Source: a virus. From it: a stretch of DNA of 64,000 nt. The notes under the pieces were generated by a model that saw only the letters and a program-made list of their open reading frames with translations, was not told the origin of the DNA and ran no database searches. Both the position numbers and the translations under genes were made by a program. The DNA is taken from the IMG/VR virus record IMGVR_UViG_3300037485_002668, positions 35,245 to 99,244 of that record, one strand, 5' to 3'. Shown piece after piece: positions 25,437 to 41,090 of this stretch (positions are counted from its first letter, which is position 1; each line of letters opens with the position of its first letter).

Positions 25437-26366
25437 CTATTTAGTGGGGGATTTGAGGGCGGAAAAAAGTTTTGTCAGGAATTTGGAAAAGGGTTCCTGT
25501 TTGCAGGCGACGGTCAGGTTGTCGGGGTTAGCCTTGGGGAACCAGTCGGGGGACTCGAAATTCCAGGCGGCGATTTTGACGTCGGTGCAGGCGGCCAGTT
25601 GGGTGATACCAGAATCCTTACCGAGGTATAGTTTGGCGTTAGCAATTAACCAAAGAATTTCGGGCAGGCTGGCGCGGTTGCGTAAATCGATGAACGGCGG
25701 CCAGATTTCGAGCAGGTCGTTATCGGTGAATACGGGGTGGTCGTTACCAACTAAGACGATGCTTTTGAATTCGTTTTGACAGCGGCGCAAGACCTGCAAG
25801 ATACGGAAAAGTTCCTCGAAGGTGACGTTCTTTTCGGGCATGTCGTAAGCCCGCAGGTGGAATACAATGTAGGGTTGCGGGGGGATTTCGGCGGGCGGCT
25901 GAGGTTGGAAACCGGGATTCAATTTCAGTCCGCAATGTTCGACCAGGTCCGTAAGTTCCGCGGCGACATTAAACAAAAATACGTTTTTTGCCAGGCGGTC
26001 GGGGTGGGTCGGGTCACGGGGAATGAAATTATGATTTAGCATATTCGGCCAAAAGAGTTTGTCGTAATGCAAGCGGCCTTCCAGGAGGTGACTAAGCTGC
26101 TCGGTGGTGGTCAGGATTACAGTTTCGGTTGGATTTTGCTGGCGGTAATATTCAAAAATCGTATTGATCCAAATCCGATCCCCCAGGCGGTTAAATTCCG
26201 TACTCATGGCAAAATACGTTTGGGCGTTGGGCAGGGTCGGATATTTTCTTTTGGCAATGACTAAATAGCATTGCATACACTGCCAGCAACGGTCGGCGTA
26301 AAAATATTCGTCACGGGCGGGGTAATCGACTTCTTTGCCGCATTCACTGCAATGGAACAGGGGCAT
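25437..26366 (-). CDS. GT-B glycosyltransferase, GT9 (heptosyltransferase)-like, with N-terminal zinc ribbon
   Basis: RLGDRIW; IDLRNRASLPEILWLIANAKLYLGKDSGITQLAA. Confidence 0.75.
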   Translation of the reverse strand: MPLFHCSECGKEVDYPARDEYFYADRCWQCMQCYLVIAKRKYPTLPNAQTYFAMSTEFNRLGDRIWINTIFEYYRQQNPTETVILTTTEQLSHLLEGRLHYDKLFWPNMLNHNFIPRDPTHPDRLAKNVFLFNVAAELTDLVEHCGLKLNPGFQPQPPAEIPPQPYIVFHLRAYDMPEKNVTFEELFRILQVLRRCQNEFKSIVLVGNDHPVFTDNDLLEIWPPFIDLRNRASLPEILWLIANAKLYLGKDSGITQLAACTDVKIAAWNFESPDWFPKANPDNLTVACKQEPFSKFLTKLFSALKSPTK

Positions 26367-26631
26367 TCGCAGGCTCCTCGGGTTTGGGGGTTACGGGTTC
26401 AGGATTAACGATAGTGGGTTTGGGATTCAATGGTTCATTTAGTTTATTAATAGCCGCGTTTAAATTTTCAAATTCCGTGATGATAATTTGAATGCACGTT
26501 TCCACCAGGCGATCCCGAATCAGGATTGAATCGGTGGGGAGTTTCAGCGCCAGATAATCGCCGGTATTTGGGATATAACGGTCATTCGATAAAATAATCA
26601 GGGCAGTTTTTAATTTTTGCGTATTTTTCAT
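26344..26631 (-). CDS. Hypothetical protein
   Basis: ORF track; likely ATG 26631. Confidence 0.55.
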   Translation of the reverse strand: MKNTQKLKTALIILSNDRYIPNTGDYLALKLPTDSILIRDRLVETCIQIIITEFENLNAAINKLNEPLNPKPTIVNPEPVTPKPEEPANAPVPLQ

Positions 26632-26640
26632 AAATTTCCC

Positions 26641-26669
26641 TTGACAATATAAAAAATTATGCTTACATT
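26641..26669 (+). promoter_or_regulatory. Sigma70-type promoter on the plus strand
   Basis: TTGACA-17 bp-TACATT. Confidence 0.6.
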
Positions 26670-26675
26670 TAAATG

Positions 26676-26773
26676 ACAAGTATTTTGTCAAATCCGGTCA
26701 ATTTGCAAAATGCTTGCATGGATAGAGTCCGGTGTATAAAGCCCTGTTTGTAAGAGTGCAAGCGGGGCTTTTT
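26676..26773 (+). ncRNA. Candidate ~100-nt small RNA
   Basis: Lies between the promoter and a plus-strand terminator (AAAGCCCTGTTTG...CAAGCGGGGCTTTTT); no ORF. Confidence 0.45.
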
Positions 26774-26789
26774 GCGATCAGTTGGCGTC

Positions 26790-26810
26790 CCACCCAGACA
26801 AGCCGGGTGG
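26790..26810 (-). repeat. Junction element, copy 6 (hairpin only)
   Basis: CCACCCAG-ACAAG-CCGGGTGG; box not recognisable. Confidence 0.7.
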
Positions 26811-26840
26811 AAACGGGGGCGGACTCTTGGTCAGGTTTGT

Positions 26841-27845
26841 TCAGGGACGCAGGGCGGAAATTTCGCCGGGGGTCCAGGGAACCTGATATGGCGACGGGCG
26901 ATTCCAGGGGGAATTGACCGGGATGCCGGTGACGGACCAGACGGGTTCCCGTTCGCAGCGACAATTCGGATGGGTATCGCTGACGGGATACGGGCCTTCA
27001 CCATGACGCCAGACCTGGCCATCCAGCGCAGCGCAAATTTGACAACAGCCGGCAAAAGCCCGCCATTGATCGTAAGGCACACCAGCGGCATCAGCCATGC
27101 GGTCGTAAGATGCGTTTAACTGAAGCTGCATTTCACTACGTACCGTGCGCATCCACCACCAGGATTGACCTTCCCCCACATTCAAATGTAACCAACGGGC
27201 GATTTCCATCGCATCCGCTTCCCGCTGCGCCATTTCAGGGAGTACCGATTTCAATAATTTAAAATAGTCTTTGCCAATTTTTTCACGCAGGCGACCCGCG
27301 GCGGCAAGACTGGCGGCGGTGAAATAGTCATCGGCGGAGGTAGGAACCACGGGCAGGAATGAATTGGGATCTTTCCATTCGGGTAAACTTTTTTGAATCA
27401 AATCATAAAACTTTTTCAGGCCATAGCTGAACATGGAAAACAGCCAGAACGCCAGGATTGCTTTCTCGGAACTGGACATATTATCTGAATTTTTCGCGCC
27501 GAGTAAGTCGGTTTGCCAATTATCCAGAATCCGTTTCAGGGCGGGTTCCGACATTTCGTCATATTCCCAGGGGTCGGCGGCTTTCTGAAAAGACGCGCGG
27601 ACGCGGTCGATGGCTGGCAGGCGGTACAATTTTAGTAAGTCAGTTTCGTATTCGGTGGTTTTATCCAGCAGGTCGGTTAGCAATTTGTTACTCATTTGGG
27701 ATACTTTTTTATCCGGATGCGGCGCGAGTAACAATTGCATTTCGGACGCGCTGGGTGTGGGTGCGTTGACTTTGGAATGAATACAAATGGCGGCGGGTTC
27801 GGGGATAATGAGTCCCTGAATGATGGAAAGGATACGGTCGTCCAT
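26841..27845 (-). CDS. Head morphogenesis / minor capsid protein (SPP1 gp7 / Mu F-like)
   Basis: RTVRSE...CCQICAALDG...HPNCRC. Confidence 0.85.
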   Translation of the reverse strand: MDDRILSIIQGLIIPEPAAICIHSKVNAPTPSASEMQLLLAPHPDKKVSQMSNKLLTDLLDKTTEYETDLLKLYRLPAIDRVRASFQKAADPWEYDEMSEPALKRILDNWQTDLLGAKNSDNMSSSEKAILAFWLFSMFSYGLKKFYDLIQKSLPEWKDPNSFLPVVPTSADDYFTAASLAAAGRLREKIGKDYFKLLKSVLPEMAQREADAMEIARWLHLNVGEGQSWWWMRTVRSEMQLQLNASYDRMADAAGVPYDQWRAFAGCCQICAALDGQVWRHGEGPYPVSDTHPNCRCEREPVWSVTGIPVNSPWNRPSPYQVPWTPGEISALRP

Positions 27846-27874
27846 GCGAAAATCCTTAAATTAATTTAATAAAT

Positions 27875-28702
27875 TCAGAATAAATTTCCTTGTTTTAAAA
27901 TCGGGTCTAAACGTTTTTTTATAATCTCGCAATATTCAGGGCTGATTTCGGAACCAATCCAGTTCCGTTTTAACTTAATTGCCATTTTCGCCGTGGTACC
28001 GCTGCCCATAAACGGATCGTAGATTAAATTTCCTTCGTTGCTCCAGCTTATAATGTGGTCGGCAGCAAGTTGTTCAGGGAATATGGCTGGATGCTCAAAA
28101 GCAATTTTGTCTTTACTAGTATTATTAAACGAAACAATATAACTCCAAATGTTTGATATACATTTATCATTTTGTTTTACTTGGTAAATGTGCCTATCCT
28201 TGCATCTACCGTTTTCATCTCTAATGGCGTGATAATTTTTCAATCTTTTGTCTGATTTAGGTTCTAAAATCAAATTCGTAACTAACGGAATCCCCTTCGA
28301 AAGTATGAACATAAACTCAAATAAATTTTTATACCTATTTGTAGACGGAACATTATTTGCAAGTTTATTATAAATCATCGTATCGTGGATATTAAACCCA
28401 ACCTGCCTGAAATAAATCTTCTGGTAAGAACTGGCTAAACTTTCCGACCCGTTTATGGTCATATCGCCAACCACCCATACCACCACGCCGCCCTCTTTGG
28501 TCACTCGGTAAAGTTCCTTCGCAATCGCTTTAAAATCCCAGGTATAACCTTTATAGGTACGGAAACCATTTTTCGGTATAGGGTTAAAATCGGCATCCAT
28601 ATCATCGTAAGGTGGACTGGTCACCGTTAAATCGATAAAATTATCCGGCATCCGTGCCATGGTGTCCAGACAATTTTCACAGTATACTTTATTGATTTCC
28701 AT
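27875..28702 (-). CDS. DNA methyltransferase, N4/N6 beta class
   Basis: TSPPY, HPAIFP, DPFMGSGTT. Confidence 0.92.
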   Translation of the reverse strand: MEINKVYCENCLDTMARMPDNFIDLTVTSPPYDDMDADFNPIPKNGFRTYKGYTWDFKAIAKELYRVTKEGGVVVWVVGDMTINGSESLASSYQKIYFRQVGFNIHDTMIYNKLANNVPSTNRYKNLFEFMFILSKGIPLVTNLILEPKSDKRLKNYHAIRDENGRCKDRHIYQVKQNDKCISNIWSYIVSFNNTSKDKIAFEHPAIFPEQLAADHIISWSNEGNLIYDPFMGSGTTAKMAIKLKRNWIGSEISPEYCEIIKKRLDPILKQGNLF

Positions 28703-28713
28703 ATTAAATCACT

Positions 28714-29436
28714 TTAAATTTCCTGTGGTTCCTGTTTTAGTTGCGCAACGATTTGGAACTTTTCGATTTCGGAATTGCGGGGTTGTTGAAAATAGAAAAT
28801 ATCGTCTTCCCAGGGGATCGGGCGGCGGCGACCCACGCCACAAGGAAGTGGTTTGAACACGTCTTCAAAAGTACGGTGAAACAATGGTTCCGGATATTCG
28901 TTGGTATTCAGGCCGTCCAGGATTTCCGGGCTGGAAGTGCGATAGATGAATTCCCGCAGGAAATCGTGACGGATCCAAATCAGTGATTGTTCCGCCCAGC
29001 CGGGCATAAACGAAATCCCTTCGCCAAAACCGTAACTAATGGGGCAGGTTTGAAGGTACGGGATTAATTTTTCCACGCCCCAGACCAGACAATCCTGTTC
29101 AACGAATAACAGGTCGAAATGGTTCATTAAGGCGTATTGGGCGGCCATAATCAACGTGGCGTGGAAATCGTGCTGGTGGGGGAGTTGCTGCGCGTCCAGG
29201 TAGCCGGTGACGATGGTTTGGGAAATGGGCTGAAAGTATTTCAACGGCAACACGGGCGGAGTCGGGCAGTTGGAAACGTAAATGAAATAGTGCGCGGGTT
29301 TCAGCCATTTTTCCAGCGGGGGGAGCCAGTAATGGTTGAGCCAGTACGGATCCAGGCACTGTTGGCTGCGGTTGGGGTTGGCGTGGGCGGTAGGGGCGCT
29401 GAACCAACCGGTGGCGAGGAGGAGGTTTTTGAACAT
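28714..29436 (-). CDS. Putative GT-A fold sugar transferase-like protein
   Basis: LFVEQDCLV (DxD-like) motif; cargo context. Confidence 0.4.
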   Translation of the reverse strand: MFKNLLLATGWFSAPTAHANPNRSQQCLDPYWLNHYWLPPLEKWLKPAHYFIYVSNCPTPPVLPLKYFQPISQTIVTGYLDAQQLPHQHDFHATLIMAAQYALMNHFDLLFVEQDCLVWGVEKLIPYLQTCPISYGFGEGISFMPGWAEQSLIWIRHDFLREFIYRTSSPEILDGLNTNEYPEPLFHRTFEDVFKPLPCGVGRRRPIPWEDDIFYFQQPRNSEIEKFQIVAQLKQEPQEI

Positions 29437-29459
29437 AGTTTTTTCCTTCCATTGGTTTT

Positions 29460-29726
29460 TTAATCACCAATTTTTTCAGATATCTTTTTTAATTCGCCGG
29501 CAAACCATATAAATTCAGTATTTTTGGCTGCTCTGTCTTCCAGCATATTACTTAATATTTCTAGTTTTTGTTTTGCCCACGACAGCCGGTTCTTTCTCGA
29601 AATGTTTTTCGATAATTCAGTACTAATAAATTCAAATGCCCAGGATGGTATTTCAAAAAATCCGACTTCAGGAATTTTGTTTAAAGGATAGCCATAATTT
29701 CCGGGATAAAATTTGATAGTTTCCAT
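29460..29726 (-). CDS. Hypothetical protein
   Basis: ORF after a repeat copy, SD AGGA. Confidence 0.6.
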   Translation of the reverse strand: METIKFYPGNYGYPLNKIPEVGFFEIPSWAFEFISTELSKNISRKNRLSWAKQKLEILSNMLEDRAAKNTEFIWFAGELKKISEKIGD

Positions 29727-29743
29727 AATAATTCCTGTTTTTT

Positions 29744-29780
29744 GCTGTCAATCATCATTCCACCCAGGCAAGCTGGGTGG
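29744..29780 (-). repeat. 37-bp junction element, copy 7 (downstream of cysH)
   Basis: GCTGTCAATCAT-CATT-CCACCCAG-GCAAG-CTGGGTGG. Confidence 0.95.
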
Positions 29781-29804
29781 TGTGGATTAAATTTTTTTAT
29801 ACCT

Positions 29805-30548
29805 TCAAAGATAACTTCTGATTTCAGGACATTTCGTAACTAAAAAATTGAACTGCTCAGGATAGTTCCGTTTCAAAAACAGATAAAATCCACGCTCGCC
29901 AATACTTAAAATATACCAATTTACACGAATCCACTCACGTTCCGGAATCGTATTGGCTTTTAAATAAATCGGATGGTATTCGTAGTCCGAATGAGTTATA
30001 AAAGAAAAAATATCATTGGCGTCTAAATAGGCGACGGGATAACAACTAAAAGCCTTAAAAGATTTGTTAAAAAAATAAGTGCCATTGACGCCAATGGTCA
30101 TTTTACGGGCACGGCTTTCCTGAACCCGGATCCCGGTAATCACCAGGTCATATTCCTTGTTCGTATTCCACCAGGGTTTTAAAATTTCCTTATTGACTTT
30201 ATTAATCGCCGTCAAATCAAAATACCCGGCCGTTAACTTTGCAATCAAAGGGTCAATCTTGGGATTAATTTCCCTTAAATTAAAGCCCAATTTTTCAGCG
30301 GCGGCCTTTACAAATGAATCAGTTTCAGGAAATTCGTAACCACTATTGAACCAAACCAACTCAGGCGTAAGGTTCAACTGTTTACACAAAATCGCACAGG
30401 TCAAGGAGTCTTTGCCGCCGCTAAAAGACAACGCTATTTTCTGTTTATTTTTACTGGCATTCTCCAGGATCAATTTGGCCCGTTTTATTTTTAGCATGAC
30501 CCGATTATTTTGATAATTCATCAAATCGAATTGCGTAAATTTATGCAC
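29805..30548 (-). CDS. cysH: PAPS-reductase family (CysH-like) protein of type IV-B CRISPR-Cas
   Basis: SFSGGKDS PP-loop, GIRVQESRAR; adjacent to csf genes. Confidence 0.85.
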   Translation of the reverse strand: MHKFTQFDLMNYQNNRVMLKIKRAKLILENASKNKQKIALSFSGGKDSLTCAILCKQLNLTPELVWFNSGYEFPETDSFVKAAAEKLGFNLREINPKIDPLIAKLTAGYFDLTAINKVNKEILKPWWNTNKEYDLVITGIRVQESRARKMTIGVNGTYFFNKSFKAFSCYPVAYLDANDIFSFITHSDYEYHPIYLKANTIPEREWIRVNWYILSIGERGFYLFLKRNYPEQFNFLVTKCPEIRSYL

Positions 30549-30551
30549 GGT

Positions 30552-31307
30552 CTACGCCCTGGCCAATGGTTTCAACTTAGTACCCGCAGGATATGAATTT
30601 ACTGGCTTTGAATTTATACCATAATACGGCGGACAAATTGGGCGCATTTCTATAAAATCATTTTCAGGAAACCAGCCTTTTTGTTTACAATAATCGACAG
30701 GCAAAGGACGCATTAATTTATCATAACGCATTAATGCAAAAGACGAATTGCCATTTTGTTTTTCAATTTCCCAGGTACATTCACCCCAACCGACACTATG
30801 CTTTTTACCGATATGAGCGGGATTGGGGATTATTTTTTTCAGCAATTCGATATTGCCTTCGCCAAAAATTTTATAATGCTTACGGTCAGAATATAAAGTT
30901 GGCATCAGATACGATTTAAAATCGCCTTGTTGGACGGAAACGCGTTTTGCATTTACCGAATTTAATAGTCGCTTTTCAAAACGTTTAGTCCAGTAAGTTG
31001 ATTTTTCAGGCAAATCAAAGAGATAACTACACATATAAAAAAAAGTATCTTTAAACTGGACTTTAAAAAGTGGAATCGTAATGGGCACCAACTCATCATG
31101 ATCATAACTCAAATTGAAATAATCAGATTGCAATACGTAAAGCATGGTATAGTGTGCAATCACCGAATCAAACGCCAAAATATCATTGCCACTGCGACCT
31201 GTTTTAAATTCAAGATGAATGATAAAATTTTCATTCAGTGCGCTTTTACGGGTCAGATTATTCCAATTTTCGACTTTGTTTAAAATTGAAGGTTCTAATT
31301 TTCGCAA
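30552..31307 (-). CDS. csf3: Type IV Cas5-like RAMP (Csf3)
   Basis: LAFDSVIA, IGKKHSVGWG glycine loop, RPLP, RPICPPYY. Confidence 0.8.
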   Translation of the reverse strand: MRKLEPSILNKVENWNNLTRKSALNENFIIHLEFKTGRSGNDILAFDSVIAHYTMLYVLQSDYFNLSYDHDELVPITIPLFKVQFKDTFFYMCSYLFDLPEKSTYWTKRFEKRLLNSVNAKRVSVQQGDFKSYLMPTLYSDRKHYKIFGEGNIELLKKIIPNPAHIGKKHSVGWGECTWEIEKQNGNSSFALMRYDKLMRPLPVDYCKQKGWFPENDFIEMRPICPPYYGINSKPVNSYPAGTKLKPLARA

Positions 31308-31318
31308 GGTAGCATCCG

Positions 31319-32506
31319 TTATTTTTTTAAATTTAACTGGTTCAGAGTGGCTTTAATTGCATCGCGCTGATTTGTTAAAAATGAATTTGCTAAAGTCGGA
31401 TCTAATTGCTGATCGTAACAGACGTTAATTTTCCCAAAACCCGCCCGGCTCATGCCACCGATTTTTCCATCTTCAGCAAAGAGAGTTAGCATCAAATGCA
31501 AAAAGGCGGTTTCAACTTCATTCAAATAAAAATGATCAACCGACCAATTAAACAGACAGCCCGCTTCCATCGCCAAAATAGAATAAAACATCTGAACATG
31601 CGAACCGCCCAATTCAGCCTGCCATTCTGGCGTAATAGCACCTTCATAATCATCTACCCGCGTCATGAAATATTCTTTAAGATAGCTAATCGCAGGCCGG
31701 TCATTCTGGCCGTTTTCCATACAATGTAAATGGGCAAAATTGACATTTATTTTGCCGGGCAAATCTTCGTTTCCAATCATGGCGCCTAAAATAGACAAAA
31801 ACGGCAATTTTTCACGTAGCTCCCGTTTGGTTGCAATATCCACAAATCCAGTCGATTTGGTTAACATACCGCCGCTAAAAAGAGTATGGTAAGCTTTCGG
31901 TTCATAAATTTGATGGGGGTCGGCGTTCTCAAAAACAATTTTTGTGACATAAGCCATAAGTTGATCCCGCATCCGGCCACGAATTGAATTGCCTGGGATA
32001 GTCGGAACCAAGAAGTCTGATTCGGTAGTAAGGATGTCTTCAGAAATAACGAACCCCTCGCGGAAATTGAAGGATTCGGTTTGGTAAATGGCCGCAGCTA
32101 CGAACAGATCAATATTTTCACGCGCCCACTGAAGAATGTTCAAATTTTCATCTTTTGAAAGTCCGAAAGCAAATTTAGTGGTATATTGATAAAAAGACGG
32201 CTCCGCTATTGGCAGGTGTTTTAAAAGATTAGTAAAAAATTGGGAGATCGTCGAGCTACACAAAGCGGCAAACACACGATCCCGAAACGCTTCGGTAAAT
32301 GAACGGGAACCAAAATTATCTTTATTGCAGTTACGATAAAACGAACCGACACATTTAATAAGCTCTTCAGCGATTTCTTTTTTAATAACAATCGTTTTTT
32401 TTGAATGCGGGACATGAATCATATAGGGAAGCTGAATGTTCCCCGATTTATCCCCACCTACGAAAACAGGGTCAATTGCGGTAATCGTTGCGTTTATTCT
32501 GGACAT
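31319..32506 (-). CDS. csf2: Type IV Cas7-like backbone (Csf2) with an inserted helical Cas11/Csf4-like domain
   Basis: VPTIPGNSIRGRMRD, LFSGG, LP.LS.LG..IGN..L.GK, IGGMSRAGFG; helical insertion at ~aa 40-145. Confidence 0.85.
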   Translation of the reverse strand: MSRINATITAIDPVFVGGDKSGNIQLPYMIHVPHSKKTIVIKKEIAEELIKCVGSFYRNCNKDNFGSRSFTEAFRDRVFAALCSSTISQFFTNLLKHLPIAEPSFYQYTTKFAFGLSKDENLNILQWARENIDLFVAAAIYQTESFNFREGFVISEDILTTESDFLVPTIPGNSIRGRMRDQLMAYVTKIVFENADPHQIYEPKAYHTLFSGGMLTKSTGFVDIATKRELREKLPFLSILGAMIGNEDLPGKINVNFAHLHCMENGQNDRPAISYLKEYFMTRVDDYEGAITPEWQAELGGSHVQMFYSILAMEAGCLFNWSVDHFYLNEVETAFLHLMLTLFAEDGKIGGMSRAGFGKINVCYDQQLDPTLANSFLTNQRDAIKATLNQLNLKK

Positions 32507-33183
32507 GTTTTTACCTCTTCTGTTTTGATTTTATAAAGTGAATTAACCATTAATTTAAATTGTTCCGTATGTCGGACGGGTTGTAATTTTTTATAATCCG
32601 AAAAACTTAGGCTGTACTTTTGAAATTTCCAGGGTGGAATCGTACCGGCCAGCAGTTCATCTTTGGTACATTTATTTTCATAAAATGATTTTGCGATTTT
32701 ATAAAAATCAAACCACCGGGAGCGTTCAAACTGGATATTCAAGTTGTCAGTACAGACGTAAAATAATGCTGAATTATGTGAAACAAGCGACTTAAAAGCA
32801 ATATGTTTTTTCCCGCTCTGGCTAAAAACCAGAATAAACGGCGGGTTAAACGAATGTTCAAATAGATAGAACGGCTTTTCACTAAAGTCGATTTTAATAA
32901 ATTGATTGTTTTCTACCAGGTACGAATACAATCGCAAGCCACACCGCGCACCTTTGGGGCTTGCCAGGCTTTCATCGGAAAGTGAAAAAACGCAAAAATC
33001 ACAAAGTACGTCGGATTGTTTGTACCTCAGCATATTATAATCGGTAAAGTTGCCTGAAAAAATCTCTTTAGCTTTACGCCATTCTGACATGATTCGCGTG
33101 CCACCACATAGACAGCAGGTTTGGTCAGAATCGATTCCTGGCTTTTGCGTGATGGCGGTTACGATAAATTCTGTGTTGGTCAT
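32494..33183 (-). CDS. csf1: Type IV Cas8-like large subunit (Csf1)
   Basis: CCLCG...FSGNFTDY...SDVLCDFC zinc finger; PPF...SQSGKKH motif. Confidence 0.8.
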   Translation of the reverse strand: MTNTEFIVTAITQKPGIDSDQTCCLCGGTRIMSEWRKAKEIFSGNFTDYNMLRYKQSDVLCDFCVFSLSDESLASPKGARCGLRLYSYLVENNQFIKIDFSEKPFYLFEHSFNPPFILVFSQSGKKHIAFKSLVSHNSALFYVCTDNLNIQFERSRWFDFYKIAKSFYENKCTKDELLAGTIPPWKFQKYSLSFSDYKKLQPVRHTEQFKLMVNSLYKIKTEEVKTCPE

Positions 33184-33197
33184 GTGGCCTCTTTTTG

Positions 33198-33234
33198 GCT
33201 GTCAATCATGATTCCACACGGGCAGGCCGTGTGG
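33198..33234 (-). repeat. 37-bp junction element, copy 8 (upstream of csf1)
   Basis: GCTGTCAATCAT-GATT-CCACACGG-GCAGG-CCGTGTGG. Confidence 0.95.
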
Positions 33235-33244
33235 TGATATTGGG

Positions 33245-34003
33245 TTATTCAAGTAATGTCAGGTATTCGTTCCAAATCCAGGTGTCACGGATGTCTTTTA
33301 ATTCGGATTTGGGCCAGGTGTCGGGCTGGCGTTCGACCAGGGATTTATAATGCGCGCCCCAATAAATGAGATCCATTTTCTTTTCCCAGGCCAGTGTACG
33401 GCGGGCAAGTTCGGCCTCTTTGCGCTGACGCCAATCGGAACGGAGCCAATAGTGCAAGGTTACGAGTTCATCGTGTTGCAGGATTTGGCGATTGGGGGCG
33501 GCCAGGCGTTCACCGTCAATTTCCAGGTCGGCGTGGTATTTGAACGCTAACTGGATGGGTAAATCGACTTTGTCTTTATAAAAAAAGTATTGGGTGCGGG
33601 GGTCAAAATGGTCGTTTTCGTCACCCGTGTAAAAGAAATTGAAAATATGCGCGAAGTCGATGGTATTGAAACCCTGAGCGTCTGCCAGTTCGATAAAGCT
33701 GCGCAAGGTGCGATGACGGCGGACGTAATAGAACATGTCCATACCGGCAATGACCGCCCAATCGGGTTTTAATTTATGCACGGCGGCGGTGTACTGGGCG
33801 TTCAATTTGGCCAGGGAAAAGATACCCTGGGTGTTGAACCGCTCGCCGGGGCAGCCGTTGGCCTGAAGATATTCCCATGAGCCGTCGGAGGACATGTTAT
33901 CCAGCGAATAGACGGCGTCGAATTCCTGTTCTTTGGCGTATTGGAGTTTGTATGGGAGCAAGGCCAGTTCGTTGTACAGGCATTGAAATAAAATGATTTT
34001 CAT
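33245..34003 (-). CDS. Glycosyltransferase family 2-like
   Basis: YNE...LDNMSSDGSWEYL...PDW motif. Confidence 0.8.
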   Translation of the reverse strand: MKIILFQCLYNELALLPYKLQYAKEQEFDAVYSLDNMSSDGSWEYLQANGCPGERFNTQGIFSLAKLNAQYTAAVHKLKPDWAVIAGMDMFYYVRRHRTLRSFIELADAQGFNTIDFAHIFNFFYTGDENDHFDPRTQYFFYKDKVDLPIQLAFKYHADLEIDGERLAAPNRQILQHDELVTLHYWLRSDWRQRKEAELARRTLAWEKKMDLIYWGAHYKSLVERQPDTWPKSELKDIRDTWIWNEYLTLLE

Positions 34004-34021
34004 AAATAGATTCTCAGGTTT

Positions 34022-34870
34022 TTATTTACTCAAATTTTGTTCGGGATAAAGTTCCCAAACCTTTTTTTGATTTTGGTTTGCCAAATCCCGGTATTTGGGG
34101 TCGAGCAGTTGCGCCAGTACGGGCGGCGGTACCGTGCTCATTAATTGAAAATGGGTCGCGGGTTTGAAAGGCGGCGACGGGTTCGTGAAAAAATCGTCAC
34201 GGTTGGAAACGTTATTCAATCCCGAAGTGTTCAGACTTAAATGGAAATCGGAGTCGGGCGTCCAGTCGACATTTAACGGCGCGGCTTTTTGGGCGGTGAA
34301 TTGTTGGAAAAGCCAATGGTCTACAAAACGGCGGGTCTGGCTGACGGGAACTTTTCGGAACCAGTCGGTTTTAGCGCCTATGTCCAATGAGCAGCGGGAA
34401 CTGGAGGGGACGGGGTAACTCTGATAATCAAATTCCAGGGTGCGTTGGGACTTGAAATCGAAAAAATAACCACGGCGGGCTTGAATCCAGTCGGGCGGAT
34501 TCGGACTGGAAAAAAGTTCCCAGGAATTACGCAGGCGCAAGGGGTGGGAATAGCAATCCGCCGCCTGGAGTAAGAAACCCAGGGAGGTGGGGCTGGCCAG
34601 GTTCCCCAACAAACGCCATTTTTCGGATAGGGGAATCCAACTTTGCAGGGGAACATATTCGATACGGGCGCAATTGACCAGGGTCAGGCGGTCGGCATAG
34701 GTTTCGATGGCGGCTTGACCTAGCGGAGAATCGAATTGTTCCTCGGCAATCAGGAGTTCCCAGCGGAAATAGGAAAAGATAACGTCCTGGCGGCAAAGGG
34801 ATTCGAGCGCGAGCCAGGCGATGTTCTGGGCGCGATAGAGGGGCAGAGCGACGGTGAGGGTGATGTTCAT
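34022..34870 (-). CDS. GT-A fold glycosyltransferase-like protein
   Basis: LTVALP...ALESLCRQ...WELLI; AADCYSHP.RL. Confidence 0.65.
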   Translation of the reverse strand: MNITLTVALPLYRAQNIAWLALESLCRQDVIFSYFRWELLIAEEQFDSPLGQAAIETYADRLTLVNCARIEYVPLQSWIPLSEKWRLLGNLASPTSLGFLLQAADCYSHPLRLRNSWELFSSPNPPDWIQARRGYFFDFKSQRTLEFDYQSYPVPSSSRCSLDIGAKTDWFRKVPVSQTRRFVDHWLFQQFTAQKAAPLNVDWTPDSDFHLSLNTSGLNNVSNRDDFFTNPSPPFKPATHFQLMSTVPPPVLAQLLDPKYRDLANQNQKKVWELYPEQNLSK

Positions 34871-35184
34871 CTGTAGGGTCCTTGGCTGTCAATCAGGTTT
34901 CCACCTGGCCTGTCCAGGTGGGGGAATAGATTATTTTTTAGTTGTTCGGCTTGTTCGTAGGTGGCGTCATCGACGTAGGATAATTCGGAAAAGCCACTCA
35001 GGGAATAGCCGACAAGCTGGGCAAATTGAATACGGTCTTCGTCTGAAAAATCCATCAGGGCAAGTTTGTTCAGATCATGTGGCCCATGTTCAAGCAAAAA
35101 TTGGACAATGGCATTGGCCTTGAAACGCAACGTGCCATGTTGGTCTTGAATAAGGGGTTGCAGGGGATGGGATTTATTTTCCAT
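34867..35184 (-). CDS. Hypothetical phage protein; 3' end reads through a repeat copy
   Basis: HPLQP...RFKANAIV...QFAQLVGYSLSGF. Confidence 0.75.
   Translation of the reverse strand: MENKSHPLQPLIQDQHGTLRFKANAIVQFLLEHGPHDLNKLALMDFSDEDRIQFAQLVGYSLSGFSELSYVDDATYEQAEQLKNNLFPHLDRPGGNLIDSQGPYR
34885..34921 (-). repeat. 37-bp junction element, copy 9
   Basis: GCTGTCAATCAG-GTTT-CCACCTGG-CCTGT-CCAGGTGG. Confidence 0.9.
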
Positions 35185-35185
35185 G

Positions 35186-35222
35186 GCTGTAAGTCATCCT
35201 TCCACACGGGCGAGCCGTGTGG
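35186..35222 (-). repeat. 37-bp junction element, copy 10
   Basis: GCTGTAAGTCAT-CCTT-CCACACGG-GCGAG-CCGTGTGG. Confidence 0.9.
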
Positions 35223-35236
35223 TGAGTGGTGTATGG

Positions 35237-35548
35237 TTAATTGCGCGGGGGGATTAGGTTTTTGTCCCGCAAATATAGAATTAATTCTTTGACCAGCTTT
35301 TTGCTGGCAACGAAACTTAGAATACCCATCACTAAACGGGTTTTGCGGCTGAGGCCGTAAGAGGCGTTTTCGATGGCGCTGACCCGATTTTTGGGATGGG
35401 AGAAACCCAGTAGTTCGCCGAACAATCGTTGCGAAATGCCGAGGCATTGGCGCAAGCGATAGACGGGGTGTTGACGTTTTTTGAGGGCTTTGGCGGAAAC
35501 CTTCGGGACGGAACTGGTTTTCGGGAGGTAATTTACGGTTTTTTTCAT
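35237..35548 (-). CDS. Cro/XRE-like HTH protein
   Basis: RLRQCLGISQRLFGELLG...VSAIEN. Confidence 0.7.
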   Translation of the reverse strand: MKKTVNYLPKTSSVPKVSAKALKKRQHPVYRLRQCLGISQRLFGELLGFSHPKNRVSAIENASYGLSRKTRLVMGILSFVASKKLVKELILYLRDKNLIPPRN

Positions 35549-35557
35549 TAATAGTCA
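35529..35557 (-). promoter_or_regulatory. Candidate sigma70 promoter overlapping the HTH gene start
   Basis: TTGACT-17 bp-TAAATT. Confidence 0.45.
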
Positions 35558-35598
35558 AGCAAAATTTTCAAAAATTTTTAGGGTTTGCTGGCGGAAAA

Positions 35599-36531
35599 TT
35601 AAGCAGGCAGGGTTTCGTCAAAAAAAGTTGGCGCTTTAACACGGTCTTCTATGCGTGTGCTGGCGGTTTGAAAATACTTGGGATCCTTTTCGATACAAAT
35701 CCACTTTCGGTTCGTGTTCATGGCGGCGATGGCAGTGGTACCGGAACCCGCGAAGCCGTCAAATACGGTATCGCCTTCGGATGTGTAGGTGCGAATCAGG
35801 TATTGAAAAAGTTCAATAGGTTTCTTTGATGGATGTTTAATTTTATAACGGCCTGATGTCAATGACTGAATTTTAATAATATCTATCGGATGTTTTTTAC
35901 CATCAAATGCAAGTTGATGTTCTTGAGGCCGACAGTTGGAATAATGGCTACTCTTTATATCACTTTTTCTACATTTTACTATTGCCTTCTCGCCTATTTT
36001 AAAACGTTTTAAAGATGATTCACTTCTAAATACACGGATTGGATTAAAAGTAAAACAGCTATCTTTAGAAAAAATCAAAACTTGTTCCTGTACTTTAAAT
36101 GGACGTACCTTTAAATTCATAAAATTTGAATTACCTCCTTTATCCCAAATCCACTCATATTTGAATCCATCTAACCAACTAATCACCAACAGGCTCGTAA
36201 ACGGCTGGCTACCAGTTAAGACAATCGCGCCGTTATCTTTGATGATTCGCTTGCGGGATTCCCAGTATTGCACCAGGTCAATTGGTAGTTTAAACAAGCG
36301 TTTGACAAAAGATTTTAACATATCCAGGTAAGCTTGATTTTCGCCGGGGTATTTTAACGCCTTCAGCCAGTTCAAGAAAGCGATTTGTTCGGCGTTGATT
36401 TGAGGCTTATCGAAAGCGCAGGCGGTGATGCCATAAGGGAGATCTTCGAGGATCATATCGATACTCTTATCGGGAACGTCACGAATCAGTTCAAAGGAAT
36501 CACCTAAATAAAGTTTGTTTAGTTCGAGCAT
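35599..36531 (-). CDS. DNA methyltransferase, N6/N4 beta class
   Basis: DLPYG, HPSKKP, DGFAGSGTT. Confidence 0.9.
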   Translation of the reverse strand: MLELNKLYLGDSFELIRDVPDKSIDMILEDLPYGITACAFDKPQINAEQIAFLNWLKALKYPGENQAYLDMLKSFVKRLFKLPIDLVQYWESRKRIIKDNGAIVLTGSQPFTSLLVISWLDGFKYEWIWDKGGNSNFMNLKVRPFKVQEQVLIFSKDSCFTFNPIRVFRSESSLKRFKIGEKAIVKCRKSDIKSSHYSNCRPQEHQLAFDGKKHPIDIIKIQSLTSGRYKIKHPSKKPIELFQYLIRTYTSEGDTVFDGFAGSGTTAIAAMNTNRKWICIEKDPKYFQTASTRIEDRVKAPTFFDETLPA

Positions 36532-37592
36532 GGCTGTTTCTCTGGTAAAATTGGGGTTGGTAGTTGACCTTTGCGCCAGCGGCGGAACATTTGTTTTAGT
36601 TCCAGGGCGCGGTGGTAATAGGTATGGTATTTTTCAATCAGACGGCGGCCAGACTGACCAATACGCACCGCGGCGGACGGGTGGCGGCGATAGTAATCGA
36701 TTAATTCAAATAGTTCCTGAATATTTTCGTACCAGACCAGGTGCTTGCGGTTCACAAACATTTCTTCAATACCGGCGAATTTGGTGACCAGAAACATGCG
36801 CCCCGTGGCCAGGCTGAGCCAGGTACGGTTGGACGTGGAACCATAAATTTCCCGATAATTTTGCACGCCCAAAACAATCCGGGCGCGGGACATCTGGTAA
36901 TTGGCATCGGATTCGAACGCGGCGGGCAGGTAAAAACACAATTGTTTCGGATCCCACCAGCGACCAACTATTAACATCTTGTACTGCCAGGCGGTGTTGT
37001 AAATTAAAAACTGGCGTTCCCGATTGGAATAGTCCAGGTAACGGGGCTGGGTAGATTTGTCGGAACCGATAAAAATCAGGTCAAAATCGCAGCGGTCTAA
37101 ATTATAATGCAGGGGATAATAAATTTCGGGATCAACGCCCTGGTGCCAGCATTGGATATTTTGCACGCCGGCGGTTTGGTAATTTTGCCATTGGGGGGGA
37201 TCCTGGTTATTCAGGAATAAGGCGTCACAAACTTTGCCCAGTTCGGATACGCGGCGGGTGAGAGCGCGATCCTGGTCGTAGAAATAAAAAAACGTGAACA
37301 TATCGGGGAACAATTCTTTAAACATTTTAATCTTCGCAGGGGTGGCGCTGTTATCGCTGAGCATCAGGATATCGGGGTGGAATTTAGCTACCTGATCTAA
37401 CAGCATTTCCGCCCAACTGGCGCCATGCTGAAGATGGCCGCCGCGATTATCGATTAAACGAACATTAAAACCCGCCTTTTTCAAGCCACGCAGCAATCCC
37501 GAACGGTGATACGGTGAAAAATTAGGTTCCAATTTTTGCCAGAAACTGCTATTTTCATAAGGCGCCAGGTGCATTAACTTTAAACGTGCCAT
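36519..37592 (-). CDS. GT-B glycosyltransferase (CgeB / Glyco_trans_1_2-like)
   Basis: GVDPEIYYP, DLIFIGS, ARIVLG...SNRTW..LATG. Confidence 0.8.
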   Translation of the reverse strand: MARLKLMHLAPYENSSFWQKLEPNFSPYHRSGLLRGLKKAGFNVRLIDNRGGHLQHGASWAEMLLDQVAKFHPDILMLSDNSATPAKIKMFKELFPDMFTFFYFYDQDRALTRRVSELGKVCDALFLNNQDPPQWQNYQTAGVQNIQCWHQGVDPEIYYPLHYNLDRCDFDLIFIGSDKSTQPRYLDYSNRERQFLIYNTAWQYKMLIVGRWWDPKQLCFYLPAAFESDANYQMSRARIVLGVQNYREIYGSTSNRTWLSLATGRMFLVTKFAGIEEMFVNRKHLVWYENIQELFELIDYYRRHPSAAVRIGQSGRRLIEKYHTYYHRALELKQMFRRWRKGQLPTPILPEKQPCSN

Positions 37593-38968
37593 ACTTGCTC
37601 CAGAAGTTTTAACCATTGCGAGGGGAGATTCTGATTTTTATTTTCGTCGGCAGGGGGGTCGTAAGCATATTCCACAAAATGTTCCCGCAAAATCGGGGTA
37701 ATCAAATCCGGGCGCCAGCTTAGGTTCAGGGCGTGGGTGTTCATTTTTTCAAACCAATCATAATAAGGCTTGCCGCTGATTTTTTTCAGCAATTCATAAA
37801 TTACGTCAGTCGTGGCGAGATCACGCAGGACGTCACTATTCAGTTCGCGGGTACAGACGCCGGGGAGTTCCTGCAACGTGGGTACAATATTTAAGGCGCG
37901 CAAATACAATTCCGTGCGACCACATTTGCCACAGCGGAAACAACTTTTTGCGGCGTGCATGCAACTGCCCTGATATTCAAACGCGGGTCGGTAACGGGTC
38001 AATAACAATTTTTGCACACCAAAATCGGACAGGCTCCAGAACGGGTCGGCAAAGGGAACGTTCAAAAGCTGGCTGAGTTGCGTCAGGGCAAAAAAGGACG
38101 GTTTCGGCCAGAACGGGAGTTTAGAATTTAATTGCACTTTAGTTTCGCCGATACTAGCGCCAATTAAAACCGCGGCAGGATTTAGCGGCAGAGCGTACAG
38201 CCACCAGGGAATTTCCCAGAACTTTACGGCATTCAGATTGGTTTCGGCGATAGTATGGCGGATATTGAAACGTGTGTAAAATTTACACAGATTGGCGTAA
38301 CGGTCGGGCCAGTCGTGGTTATACGCAAGCGTAAAACCGCAAAAGTCCTGACGCAATTCACGCAATAAAAGCGATAGGGTCAGGCCATCCTTGCCGCCGC
38401 CATTGCAGGCGTAAATCATTTGGCCGGGGGGGAATGGTTCCGGGTCGACAATATTTGCCGCGTGGATTTGGACGGGTTTCAAATGCAGCATTTGCGCGAC
38501 AAATTTCAAATGTAAATTTAAAATAGTTTGTTGCGTTTCCGTCAGGCAATCGAAACGTAAGTCGGTCGCGCCCCAGATCGCGTGTTCCATGAGCAGATAG
38601 CCGAAAAAGAAATTTAAGATTGACGGGGGGAGTGAAACGGGGCGGTCGTAATTGACCCAGATTAATTGCGCGGGGAGTGTGGCCAGCGGTTTGGCAAGAC
38701 GGCAGAATAATTGGTGGTCGTGAATTTGCGTCTGCACGGGAATGGCGGGACTTTCGGGCGGGCGGGGGGGCGGAATGACGGTGGCTTTGGTTTGGGTTTC
38801 GGAAACTAAAACAAAATAGCCGGCACGAATCTGGGCGCGCCAGAAATCGGTGTCCGGGATTTGCAGCACGGTTTTGGGGTTAAACTGGCGGGAGGAGATG
38901 TCCACCGTAAAACCGTGAGGGTCGGATTTTAGGAGCGGGGTAACGGCGGTGACGTTTAAAAGTTTCAT
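37580..38968 (-). CDS. PP-loop adenine-nucleotide alpha-hydrolase (MurL/QueC-like)
   Basis: NGGGKDG PP-loop; SC.....CFRCGKC Cys cluster. Confidence 0.6.
   Translation of the reverse strand: MKLLNVTAVTPLLKSDPHGFTVDISSRQFNPKTVLQIPDTDFWRAQIRAGYFVLVSETQTKATVIPPPRPPESPAIPVQTQIHDHQLFCRLAKPLATLPAQLIWVNYDRPVSLPPSILNFFFGYLLMEHAIWGATDLRFDCLTETQQTILNLHLKFVAQMLHLKPVQIHAANIVDPEPFPPGQMIYACNGGGKDGLTLSLLLRELRQDFCGFTLAYNHDWPDRYANLCKFYTRFNIRHTIAETNLNAVKFWEIPWWLYALPLNPAAVLIGASIGETKVQLNSKLPFWPKPSFFALTQLSQLLNVPFADPFWSLSDFGVQKLLLTRYRPAFEYQGSCMHAAKSCFRCGKCGRTELYLRALNIVPTLQELPGVCTRELNSDVLRDLATTDVIYELLKKISGKPYYDWFEKMNTHALNLSWRPDLITPILREHFVEYAYDPPADENKNQNLPSQWLKLLEQVWHV
37733..37876 (-). repeat. Source segment of the 144-bp inverted copy at 24379-24522
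   Basis: Encodes LQELPGVC...EKMNTH. Confidence 0.95.
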
Positions 38969-38991
38969 GAAGGGGGTGTCGTCCTTGGCTT

Positions 38992-39028
38992 GCTGACAAT
39001 CATGATTCCACACGGGCAGGCCGTGTGG
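38992..39028 (-). repeat. 37-bp junction element, copy 11
   Basis: GCTGACAATCAT-GATT-CCACACGG-GCAGG-CCGTGTGG. Confidence 0.95.
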
Positions 39029-39038
39029 TGGGTGGTAA

Positions 39039-40229
39039 TTATTGGTTATATTTTAACAGATAATCGGGATTAATGACTTTGAATGAAAGCTGGTGTTCGT
39101 AATTGCGAATAACCAAACCTTCACGTAAACAATCGGCGATGGTACTTTTACCTTTTGAATAATCGACCAGTTCCGGGATATTCGTGCAAGTTAATTTGCT
39201 GTAAAATTCCAGCACGGGAACGGATTGTAATTTTTCACCAGGGATGCCAGAATAATTCATATCCGTAATCCGGGCTAAAAGCACCGATGAATCGTAACGG
39301 GTCGGGTTGTTAATACTAAATACATTGAAAACATAAAAGCGCAGTTCTTTAAATTTATATGGATTATCGCCGACGCCGGGGCCAACGATTTCGCCTTGAA
39401 TGGCGAAAGTTTCGTGGAACAGATCGTAAAGCAAACGCAGGCGTTTTTCAATGGCATATTTCGCGGCGATTTTCCAGTAAGTGGTTTTTAACGTGCGGAC
39501 ATTTTTGGGGATTAAAAAATTACGGGAACAGACGCCAAATTCCAGACGGCGCCAGAAAAACAAAAAGCGGCGGGGAATCAAGAAATAAGTGGCGCTCTGG
39601 CCATCCAGCTTTTCGGTAATGTCCACCCGTAAATCCTGGGTGACTATTTTATCAAACACGGCCGGGATAGCCTGAATGCGGGCTTCATCGGTTTTTGGGA
39701 TAAAGGACGGGAACGGGAGGCGTTGCAAAAAAGTACGTTTCAGCCAGTCGGAATGACGTAAAAATTTAGCGAAGCGGGAATTAAAAATTGATTTTTGCTG
39801 CGCCAGAATTTTCGTTTCCTGTTCCGCCTGGGGATCGTGTTTTACAATATTCAAATCGTCAGTAACGTCGTCGCCTATATCGTTATAACGATTAATTAAC
39901 CTAAATAATTTTGTGGCGTCGGTATCTTTGATAGTGGAATGACCTTGGATTGGGTCCAGAATTGAAAGGGGAAAACAGATACCTTGCGAAACCTGGCCTT
40001 TGAGTTTAATGGTTTTGACGCGGAATTTACGAGTGCGCATAAACTCAAATTCCGGGCGGTCGGGCAGGATGGAATCCACTTCGACATACACGCAGGGGTC
40101 GCCGGGATTAAAATCGCCTTTTTTTACAACGACTTCCCAGCCCAGGACGGTAGCTTTTTCGATAGCATCGGCGCCGGGGATGGGGTCGAGTTTGATAATT
40201 TTTTGGATAGTGGCAAGGGGACGGGACAT
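39039..40229 (-). CDS. RNA ligase, DRB0094 (Rnl5) family
   Basis: N-terminal OB domain (PIPGADAIE...SQG), PKTDE.RIQ, TEKLDG, QGEIVG, EGLV, SFKVI. Confidence 0.9.
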   Translation of the reverse strand: MSRPLATIQKIIKLDPIPGADAIEKATVLGWEVVVKKGDFNPGDPCVYVEVDSILPDRPEFEFMRTRKFRVKTIKLKGQVSQGICFPLSILDPIQGHSTIKDTDATKLFRLINRYNDIGDDVTDDLNIVKHDPQAEQETKILAQQKSIFNSRFAKFLRHSDWLKRTFLQRLPFPSFIPKTDEARIQAIPAVFDKIVTQDLRVDITEKLDGQSATYFLIPRRFLFFWRRLEFGVCSRNFLIPKNVRTLKTTYWKIAAKYAIEKRLRLLYDLFHETFAIQGEIVGPGVGDNPYKFKELRFYVFNVFSINNPTRYDSSVLLARITDMNYSGIPGEKLQSVPVLEFYSKLTCTNIPELVDYSKGKSTIADCLREGLVIRNYEHQLSFKVINPDYLLKYNQ

Positions 40230-40247
40230 GATTTTTTTCCTTTTTTG

Positions 40248-40284
40248 GCTGTCAATCATACTTCCCCACGGGCAAGCCGTGGGG
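40248..40284 (-). repeat. 37-bp junction element, copy 12
   Basis: GCTGTCAATCAT-ACTT-CCCCACGG-GCAAG-CCGTGGGG. Confidence 0.95.
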
Positions 40285-40301
40285 TGAGTGTGGTGAATGG
40301 G

Positions 40302-41090
40302 TTAAAGCCGAATGTCGGCAAAGGTAATGAATTTAAAGTTGCGTTGGTGTTGCAATTGGGTCAGGACTTCGGTTAATTTTTCGTACTGGATGGGGTGCTT
40401 GACGTGACCCATCATAATGAAATAGCTATCCTTTTCCTGCTTACGATAAAGTTCAATTAATTGCATAATAGTCAGGACGGAATTGGCGGAGCCGCTTAAA
40501 TCCCAGCGCACGCCATTGGGCAAATAACCGATGGGAATTTCCCAGATACCGTCCCAAATTTCGTAAGGGGTGGGGTGGTTGGTCGTTTGGATTGAAGAAT
40601 CGAATTGAATGCCCAGGCGCTGCAAGACGGGGAAATTTTTTGAAAATGGTTTGATTTTATAGCCGCCGGCGCGATAAGCTACCACGGGGTTGTAATGTTC
40701 CAGTTTCTTTTTGCACTGGGTCAATTCCAGTTCGTAAGTTGAAAGGTCGATTTCATTCAGGCCGATTTCGACATTTTGGGTGTCCACGTATTTTTTTTCG
40801 GCGGCGTGCCATTCACGGAACAGCCATTGCGGATGGAAATGTAATTGCAGGGAAAAATTTTGTTTGACCATTTCCTTGAATTGGAATTTGAATTCGTTTA
40901 ATACCACGATGCTATGACGTTCGGCGTAGAGATATTCGGCCATGTCGATAAAGAACGTGGCGGGGATATGGAACCGTTGCAGGAACTGCATCAGTGGGTA
41001 GGTGGGACTGATGACGTTTTTAATGGGGTTCACTTGCTCGATGGCCTGCAAGTGATCTTCGTAATCGATGGTGATTAGGCCGTAGTTCAT
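40302..41090 (-). CDS. Polysaccharide deacetylase family protein
   Basis: ITIDYE, PATFFID, QLHFHP, YRAGG, FDSS. Confidence 0.8.
   Translation of the reverse strand: MNYGLITIDYEDHLQAIEQVNPIKNVISPTYPLMQFLQRFHIPATFFIDMAEYLYAERHSIVVLNEFKFQFKEMVKQNFSLQLHFHPQWLFREWHAAEKKYVDTQNVEIGLNEIDLSTYELELTQCKKKLEHYNPVVAYRAGGYKIKPFSKNFPVLQRLGIQFDSSIQTTNHPTPYEIWDGIWEIPIGYLPNGVRWDLSGSANSVLTIMQLIELYRKQEKDSYFIMMGHVKHPIQYEKLTEVLTQLQHQRNFKFITFADIRL

Follow-up and report, generated by a model that had tools for sequence, protein, structure and literature searches.

A complete tailed-phage genome of 99,244 bp, IMG/VR record IMGVR_UViG_3300037485_002668, carries a four-gene module related to type IV-B of the CRISPR-Cas systems, and in this module the small subunit Cas11 appears to be encoded inside the gene of its partner, the Cas7 backbone subunit Csf2. 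The window analysed here is the 64,000-nucleotide stretch made up of bases 35245-99244 of that record, and positions given below are those of the window. The structural model of Csf2 places a Cas11-homologous bundle of about 110 residues between the first β-hairpin and helix α1 of the Cas7 fold, which the bundle thereby interrupts. The identity of this inserted helical domain as a Cas11 homologue is supported, because profile hidden Markov model (HMM) searches, profile-profile comparison, fold comparison and gene context agree. The csf1-csf2-csf3-cysH-like operon quite probably encodes an array-less type IV-B-like phage effector in which Cas11 has moved into Csf2 and would form the 'belly' filament of the complex in cis.

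The csf2 gene occupies positions 31319-32506 on the minus strand as one uninterrupted open reading frame (ORF) of 395 codons; the plus-strand translation of the same interval contains many stops. The motifs quoted in the first-pass annotation of this DNA do lie in this gene where they had been placed, with the correction that the gene is on the minus strand. Three further claims made there, namely a helical segment of about 105 residues between the first RAMP strand and the VPTIPGNSIRG motif, the absence of a separate cas11 gene, and the identity of the segment with the Cas11 small subunit, were upheld by the model and Csf2 alignment, by Cas11 profile scans of the complete genome, and by the profile comparisons described below, respectively. 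In the protein, ITAIDPVFVGG occupies residues 8-18, the stretch from EELIKCVGSFY to DLFVAAA residues 47-139, and VPTIPGNSIRG residues 167-177. Residues 5-18 form a typical Cas7/RAMP first strand with its glycine-rich loop, followed by a short hairpin that runs to about residue 40. That so long an ORF is an artefact of mis-assembly, frameshift read-through or merging by the gene caller is scarcely credible: nothing was found in favour of it, the frame is single and unbroken, the same architecture recurs in 21 proteins of 36-62% identity from independent metagenomes, and the N-terminal 40 residues supply the indispensable β1 of the Cas7 fold. The helical block is likewise neither a chance feature nor an assembly artefact, since its presence and position are constant among all homologues. 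An internal start releasing free Cas11, as is found in some Cas8 genes, was considered and rejected; the only nearby methionine, M29, is not conserved, and its product would be without the Cas7 β1.

The full-length model of Csf2 (AlphaFold2 on 20 homologues; predicted local distance difference test score, pLDDT, 81; predicted template modelling score, pTM, 0.78) has strands at residues 2-10, 14-16, 29-32 and 38-40 and seven helices within residues 43-151, after which come strands at 160-170 and the Cas7 helix at 172-191. Structural alignment with VIA-align gave Z 16.9 to a type IV-A Csf2 and Z 14.8 to 7jhy_a. Model residues 1-2 pair with residues 1-4 of the Cas7 chains and the alignment reaches approximately residue 390, with only 160-257 residues aligned; because the alignment spans the protein in this way, the first strand is taken as a genuine Cas7 β1 and the helical block as internal. 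The best sequence match in the PDB (HMMER) is the Csf2 of 7JHY (E 2.4e-7), in which chain residue 49 pairs with residue 155 of the query, leaving about 106 residues extra in the phage protein. Alignment to canonical Csf2 proteins (283-295 residues) and to 7JHY Csf2 likewise places approximately 105-110 additional residues ahead of the PGNSxRG motif, and the excess in length over canonical Csf2 equals the length of the insert. Residues 1-40 share motif likeness with the β1 region of canonical Csf2 and of P0025, a Cas11-Csf2 fusion protein discussed below.

Searched alone (query P0021, residues 38-158) against 5027 PADLOC models, the insert matched two families only, both of them type IV Cas11. 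The stronger match, to PDLC01694 (E 7.4e-5), spanned positions 6-102 of the 114 in that profile; the other was to PDLC01695 (E 0.0053). Fifteen of the 20 homologues matched PDLC01694 (best E 9.5e-7) and 7 of 20 matched PDLC01695, and the distant insertion-type Csf2 P0023 matched the Cas11 profile at 6.2e-5. As a yardstick, the genuine stand-alone Cas11 of the Halomontanus IV-B plasmid scores 3e-4 and 0.04 on these two models, no better than the insert, and other stand-alone Cas11 proteins reach E-values between 1e-11 and 1e-75 with one of the various Cas11 models. Profile-profile comparison (hhalign) of the 21 inserts with 19 stand-alone archaeal-type IV-B Cas11 proteins gave a probability of 92.7% (E 4.2e-7, 86 columns), whereas two bona fide stand-alone Cas11 subfamilies, archaeal-type and actinobacterial, gave only 1.4% with each other. 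An alignment of 7 inserts against a mixed alignment of 8 Cas11 sequences reached only 23%, and splitting the Cas11 set placed the signal in the archaeal-type subfamily. The core common to the insert and stand-alone Cas11 in the hhalign alignments is the motif F-x-D-R-V ... T-I-S-x-F-F. The insert was also modelled alone (pLDDT 83) and compared by VIA-align with 48,161 representative PDB chains. The top match was 7jhy_h, a type IV-B Cas11 (Z 9.4, rmsd, root-mean-square deviation, 3.3 Å, 107 of 121 residues), which is the sole chain with Z>=5 and stands alone as an outlier, the next chain being 4.4 Z units lower at Z 5.0. This fold match is specific, because the authors of the 7JHY structure found the IV-B Cas11 fold to be distinct from the small subunits of types I and III (PMC7937560).

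Several observations weigh against identification of the insert as Cas11. The sequence matches to Cas11 are each modest when taken singly (E 1e-4 to 1e-7), and the specificity of the Cas11 profile is imperfect at lax thresholds, half of the control genomes (7 of 14) also giving matches at E<=1. The hhalign likeness does not extend to the actinobacterial Cas11 subfamily (0.5%). According to the aligner's own note a Z of 9.4 lies within the chance range for helical bundles, although no other chain comes near it. Foldseek with the insert alone found no match in the PDB at E<=0.001, the Cas11 chains 7tr6_E, 8fcj_J and 7jhy_g being among its weak rows, with the highest TM-scores. A profile built from the insert retrieved no stand-alone Cas11 at E<=0.001 from 1.84 billion representative sequences, where it otherwise gave only fused forms and one fragment; a repeat protein that it also matched, P0022, is regarded as spurious. 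Against PDB sequences the same profile (hmmsearch) gave only a spurious match to FosB (E 0.24). Charge speaks neither for nor against a continuous basic patch: the insert of the window phage has a net charge of 0, with no basic, nucleic-acid-facing patch evident from its composition, and the family mean is +3.

These results bear on the alternative that the helical block is an unrelated, lineage-specific bundle that came to resemble Cas11 by convergence, in systems that would do without a small subunit. Type IV-A works without Cas11 (PMC7937560), helical bundles often reach middling Z scores, and both the Foldseek search and the HMMER searches of the PDB and of the representative sequences would fit such an origin. 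Convergence is nonetheless highly improbable, as profile HMMs, profile-profile alignment and structure all point to a single family, the very one that such a locus should contain. In addition, the best structural match is separated from all others by the wide margin given above, and proteins of a sister clade have a homologous domain ahead of Csf2, in the order of the canonical genes cas11 and csf2.

Gene context is in keeping with a Cas11 origin of the insert. No separate cas11 gene was found in the complete genome; the sole match of the Cas11 profile lies inside csf2 (32093-32383, minus strand), and two further Cas11 profiles had no match in the phage genome. Two related IMG/VR viral records also gave no separate Cas11 match. 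Canonical IV-B plasmid loci (8 of 8) carry a cas11 gene of 131-155 codons immediately upstream of a csf2 of 283-295 codons. In related insertion-type loci csf1 abuts csf2 (6 of 6), and there is therefore no room for a cas11 gene. Apart from cas11 the type IV-B gene set of the phage module is complete. Because the separate gene is absent the module is filed as a variant of type IV-B and not as a canonical member.

The insertion-type family numbers 21 proteins, comprising 20 clusters at 90% identity (36-62% identical, 391-411 residues) and the more distant P0023. The insert occurs at the same place in all 20 homologues and in P0023, and with a mean pairwise identity of 0.58 it equals the Cas7 core (0.61) in conservation. 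None of the homologues surveyed is without the insertion, and none is accompanied by a separate cas11. Of the two IMG/VR viral contigs with related loci, one (L002) has the order csf1-csf2-csf3-cysH and the other (L001, 5770-9161) is permuted to csf3-cysH-csf1-csf2, with the same four genes and still without cas11. The remaining four loci (L003-L006) are metagenome contigs; all have csf1-csf2, csf3 comes next in L003 and L005, and L003 has a weak CysH-like match further downstream. The L005 homologue (P0019, also P0020; L005:1079-2269) contains 16 in-frame TGA codons, and the tryptophans of its database translation sit at glycines conserved in other family members. Its sequence fits genetic code 25, in which TGA encodes glycine as in Gracilibacteria/Absconditabacteria, and not code 4; the insertion-type module would therefore also occur in elements of recoded hosts. 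Profile scans of genome contigs with the insertion-family alignment and with P0025 found no relatives, and a search of a phage collection found only a distant canonical Csf2, that of Skermania phage SPI1, at 22% identity.

A covalent link between Cas11 and Csf2 is not confined to the insertion-type family. The insert profile also found P0025, in which a Cas11-homologous domain at residues 4-91 precedes a complete Cas7 with its own β1; the protein matches the Cas11 profile (E 9.3e-7) and the full Csf2 profile. Judged from sequence, this arrangement is the expected outcome of a simple fusion of adjacent cas11 and csf2 genes. The P0025 family has at least 366 members at E<=0.001, including proteins from a Nitrospirae metagenome-assembled genome, Rectinema and Sulfuriferula multivorans (SFMTTN_2081), all annotated as hypothetical. 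The 120 relatives listed (P0026-P0144 included) are mostly about 400-470 residues long and cover 90-100% of the query, and at least 69 of them show the N-terminal Cas11 domain. In hhalign the insert is closer to this N-terminal domain (97.3%, E 2.7e-11) than to any stand-alone Cas11. Since the N-terminal fusion is a second, independent architecture, the Cas11 domain is regarded as a self-contained module travelling with Csf2. On a tree of the Cas7 core the two families form separate clades, with support of 100 for the insertion type (21 rows) and of 99 for the N-terminal fusions (39 sampled rows), and the sister link between them is weak (72). The insertion form, which may have arisen independently or by rearrangement of the N-terminal fusion, is not nested within the fusion clade on this tree, and the tree does not set the order of events. 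Internal insertion is rarer than N-terminal fusion and topologically different from it, and the unusual feature of the phage protein is the internal position of Cas11, the covalent link as such not being unique given the numerous N-terminal fusions. A literature search, exclusive of supplementary tables, found no published description of either a fusion or an insertion of Cas11 and Csf2.

Comparison with characterized systems places the phage module nearest to canonical type IV-B, as known from Mycobacterium sp. JS623 (7JHY; PMC7937560). Both have the same four protein families, a CysH-like neighbour, no CRISPR array and a mobile element as carrier, and among solved structures 7JHY supplies the best or near-best match both for phage Csf2 and for its insert. 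They differ in that canonical Cas11 is a separate protein of 131-155 residues encoded upstream of csf2, whereas phage Cas11 follows the first β-hairpin inside Csf2; in the subunit ratio, which is 6:5 in the canonical complex and would be n:n in the phage; and in the element, a plasmid in one case and a tailed phage in the other. The N-terminal fusion clade likewise joins a homologous Cas11 covalently to IV-B Csf2 in a protein of similar overall length, but there Cas11 precedes a complete Cas7, while in phage Csf2 β1 and the hairpin come first and Cas11 interrupts Cas7. Cas11 domains covalently embedded among Cas7 domains are also found in the type III-E Cas7-11 (gRAMP), III-D2 and III-I effectors (PMC12669027). 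In those effectors several Cas7 domains and one Cas11 form one protein that replaces the filament; the modelled phage Csf2 has one Cas7 and one Cas11 domain, not several Cas7 domains, and must still polymerise. Its likeness to Cas7-11-type effectors is best described as functional analogy only and not as family membership. The Cas11-like C-terminal domains of Cas8, Cas10 and the bacterial Cas10-IVc2 (PMC13676074) offer a further parallel, a small-subunit fold carried within another effector subunit. Those are terminal domains of a single-copy large subunit, unlike the phage domain, which is internal and belongs to the multi-copy backbone subunit.

A plausible mechanism can be drawn from the solved complexes. 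Csf2 would polymerise along an RNA as in 7JHY, with Csf3 and Csf1 capping the filament, and every Csf2 protomer would supply its own tethered Cas11 domain. In the related Csm3 the target strand lies opposite the β1-α1 loop, which also contains the catalytic aspartate (PMC7937560). With the insertion in this loop, the Cas11 domain would come to lie on the side that normally bears the small-subunit filament. There the tethered domains may stack in cis into a belly filament, making assembly independent of a separate gene and co-assembly obligatory. In type IV-C, Cas11 slides along Cas7 upon target binding (PMC13676074), a movement that the tether would restrict. The first-pass annotation had proposed that insertion forces a 1:1 Cas7:Cas11 stoichiometry and had presented this as an unusual architecture. 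A ratio of n:n would indeed be expected, but the change is smaller than was implied, as the solved complexes already stand at 6 Csf2 to 5 Cas11 in type IV-B (PMC7937560) and 7:6 in type IV-C (PMC13676074). Because the shift from n:(n-1) to n:n is small, the emphasis on stoichiometry was overstated. The name Csf4/Cas11 used there needs correction; Csf4 usually denotes the DinG helicase of type IV-A (PMC7038947), though one paper labels Cas11 as Csf4.

It is also conceivable, though unlikely, that the insert derives from Cas11 and has been repurposed, either as a platform on which another protein docks (the CysH-like enzyme or Csf1, for example) or as a lid over the RNA-binding face, without a continuous minor filament. 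The connections on both sides of the insertion point are short and may not let the domain reach the Csf2-Csf2 interface that Cas11 holds in 7JHY (PMC7937560), the domain of the window phage is uncharged overall, and a CysH-like gene is strictly linked to the module. Set against this, the whole Cas11 profile and fold have been kept, not a fragment, and in every locus the separate cas11 has been lost, which speaks for a domain that still performs the task of that gene. A Cas11 that continues to act as the small subunit, now from within Csf2, is accordingly the reading followed here.

The module is compact, with gaps or overlaps of at most 13 nt between its genes, the largest being the overlap of the csf1 stop with the csf2 start by 13 nt. 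Csf1 matches NCBIfam TIGR03114 (cas8u_csf1) at E 1e-10 and, because its 41.7 bits fall short of the curated cut-off of 140, is considered a divergent member; Csf2 is also under the family cut-off of TIGR03115. No CRISPR array was found in the window by Tandem Repeats Finder or in the 99-kb genome by a crude spaced-repeat scan. Pfam and PADLOC scans of the neighbours at 25.4-42.5 kb, the stretch that these scans covered, revealed no Cas6, adaptation genes or DinG/RecD helicase. In a canonical archaeal IV-B locus examined alongside (Thermococcus nautili plasmid THER333_p, 3234-3977), the label 'CRISPR-associated endoribonuclease Cas6' has been given to the gene that stands in the place of csf3; this is probably a mislabelled Cas5/Csf3, or else a real Cas6-like replacement. 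The phage record itself ends in direct terminal repeats (127 bp in our own check), and among the phage proteins are a tape measure protein, the major head protein, the portal and the large terminase. The head/tail genes on one side and the portal/terminase genes on the other enclose an accessory block on the minus strand (25437-42463) that contains the IV-B module together with the genes listed in Table 1.

Table 1. Features of the type IV-B-like module and its surroundings (window positions)
Feature	Position	Strand	Evidence or remark
csf1 (Cas8-like large subunit, 229 aa, Cys-rich N-terminus)	32494..33183	-	PADLOC typeIV_Cas8 PDLC01721, E 9.7e-29, aa 2-222
csf2 (Cas7 backbone subunit, 395 aa, with putative inserted Cas11 domain)	31319..32506	-	Pfam RAMPs, 4e-9; PADLOC typeIV_Cas7 PDLC01724, 2.7e-36, aa 155-392
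Csf2 aa 1-40: Cas7 β1, glycine-rich loop and hairpin, preceding the insert	32387..32506	-	Model strands; pLDDT 94 for residues 1-10; aligns to N-termini of solved Cas7 chains
Csf2 aa 41-152: inserted Cas11-homologous seven-helix domain	32051..32386	-	PADLOC Cas11 profiles, hhalign, VIA-align
Csf2 aa 153-395: linker, PGNSIRG motif, Cas7 palm, low-confidence thumb region (aa ~284-306), C-terminal helices	31319..32050	-	
csf3 (Cas5, 251 aa), 11 nt 3' of csf2	30552..31307	-	PADLOC typeIV_Cas5 PDLC01727, E 8.1e-24; NCBIfam TIGR03116, E 0.0019
cysH-like PP-loop enzyme (247 aa, SGGKDS motif), 3 nt 3' of csf3	29805..30548	-	Pfam PAPS_reduct PF01507, E 8.7e-18
Junction element immediately 5' of csf1	33198..33236	-	Hairpin and TGATTGACAGC; link to module putative
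Junction element just downstream of cysH-like gene	29744..29782	-	Copies at 29744 and 33198 bracket the four-gene module
Hairpin element copies	2711, 2756, 29744, 33198, 34885, 40248, 49148, 51820, 55640, 56935	-	
N6/N4 DNA methylases (two)	27875-28702; 35599-36531	-	In accessory block
Glycosyltransferase-like genes (three or four)	25437-26366; 33245-34003; 36519-37616	-	In accessory block
RNA ligase with PHA02142 OB domain	39039-40259	-	In accessory block
477-aa protein, family unassigned, among several such ORFs	37580-39013	-	In accessory block

A dispersed intergenic element of about 40 nt is a further feature of this DNA; it recurs 10 times on the transcribed strand of the window, where chance alone would give 0.1. 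Each consists of a GC-rich hairpin, whose stem varies by compensatory substitutions, followed by an invariant TGATTGACAGC, and the element often lies 10-20 nt ahead of a ribosome-binding site and ATG. Such an element may serve as a signal for RNA processing or as a junction signal. A bolder proposal would be that the effector is not guide-less and that the hairpin-TGATTGACAGC elements, at least 10 in number, are solitary repeat units whose processed 3' tails nucleate the Cas11-in-Csf2 filament on phage transcripts, the tether having evolved for this assembly; if true, the dispersed elements would constitute a distributed, array-free guide source. This proposal is very unlikely to be correct. 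The elements do not form a CRISPR array, and the exact 10-mer of the element is absent from related loci L001-L006.

Type IV-B is, to our knowledge, the least understood CRISPR-Cas subtype, being without an array, a nuclease or a known function. Judging from the phage setting and from the modification enzymes next to it, the module may act in conflict with host defences or rival elements, and its position amid DNA methylases, glycosyltransferases and an RNA ligase fits such a role in conflicts among phage, host and mobile elements. For the task of the complex and its CysH-like partner in the phage, our best guess is an interference that is RNA-guided or RNA-sequestering and is directed at host defence or at competing mobile elements. 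Two topologies, N-terminal fusion and internal insertion, show the pairing of Cas7 with Cas11 to be the conserved functional unit, and a backbone and small subunit in one polypeptide would offer a simpler, three-protein complex for structural reconstitution. The notable point is one of topology, a whole subunit nested within the fold of its partner. Internal insertion would fix the site of Cas11 relative to the target-facing Cas7 loop, and the phage module may thus serve as a natural experiment on how much sliding the mechanism needs.

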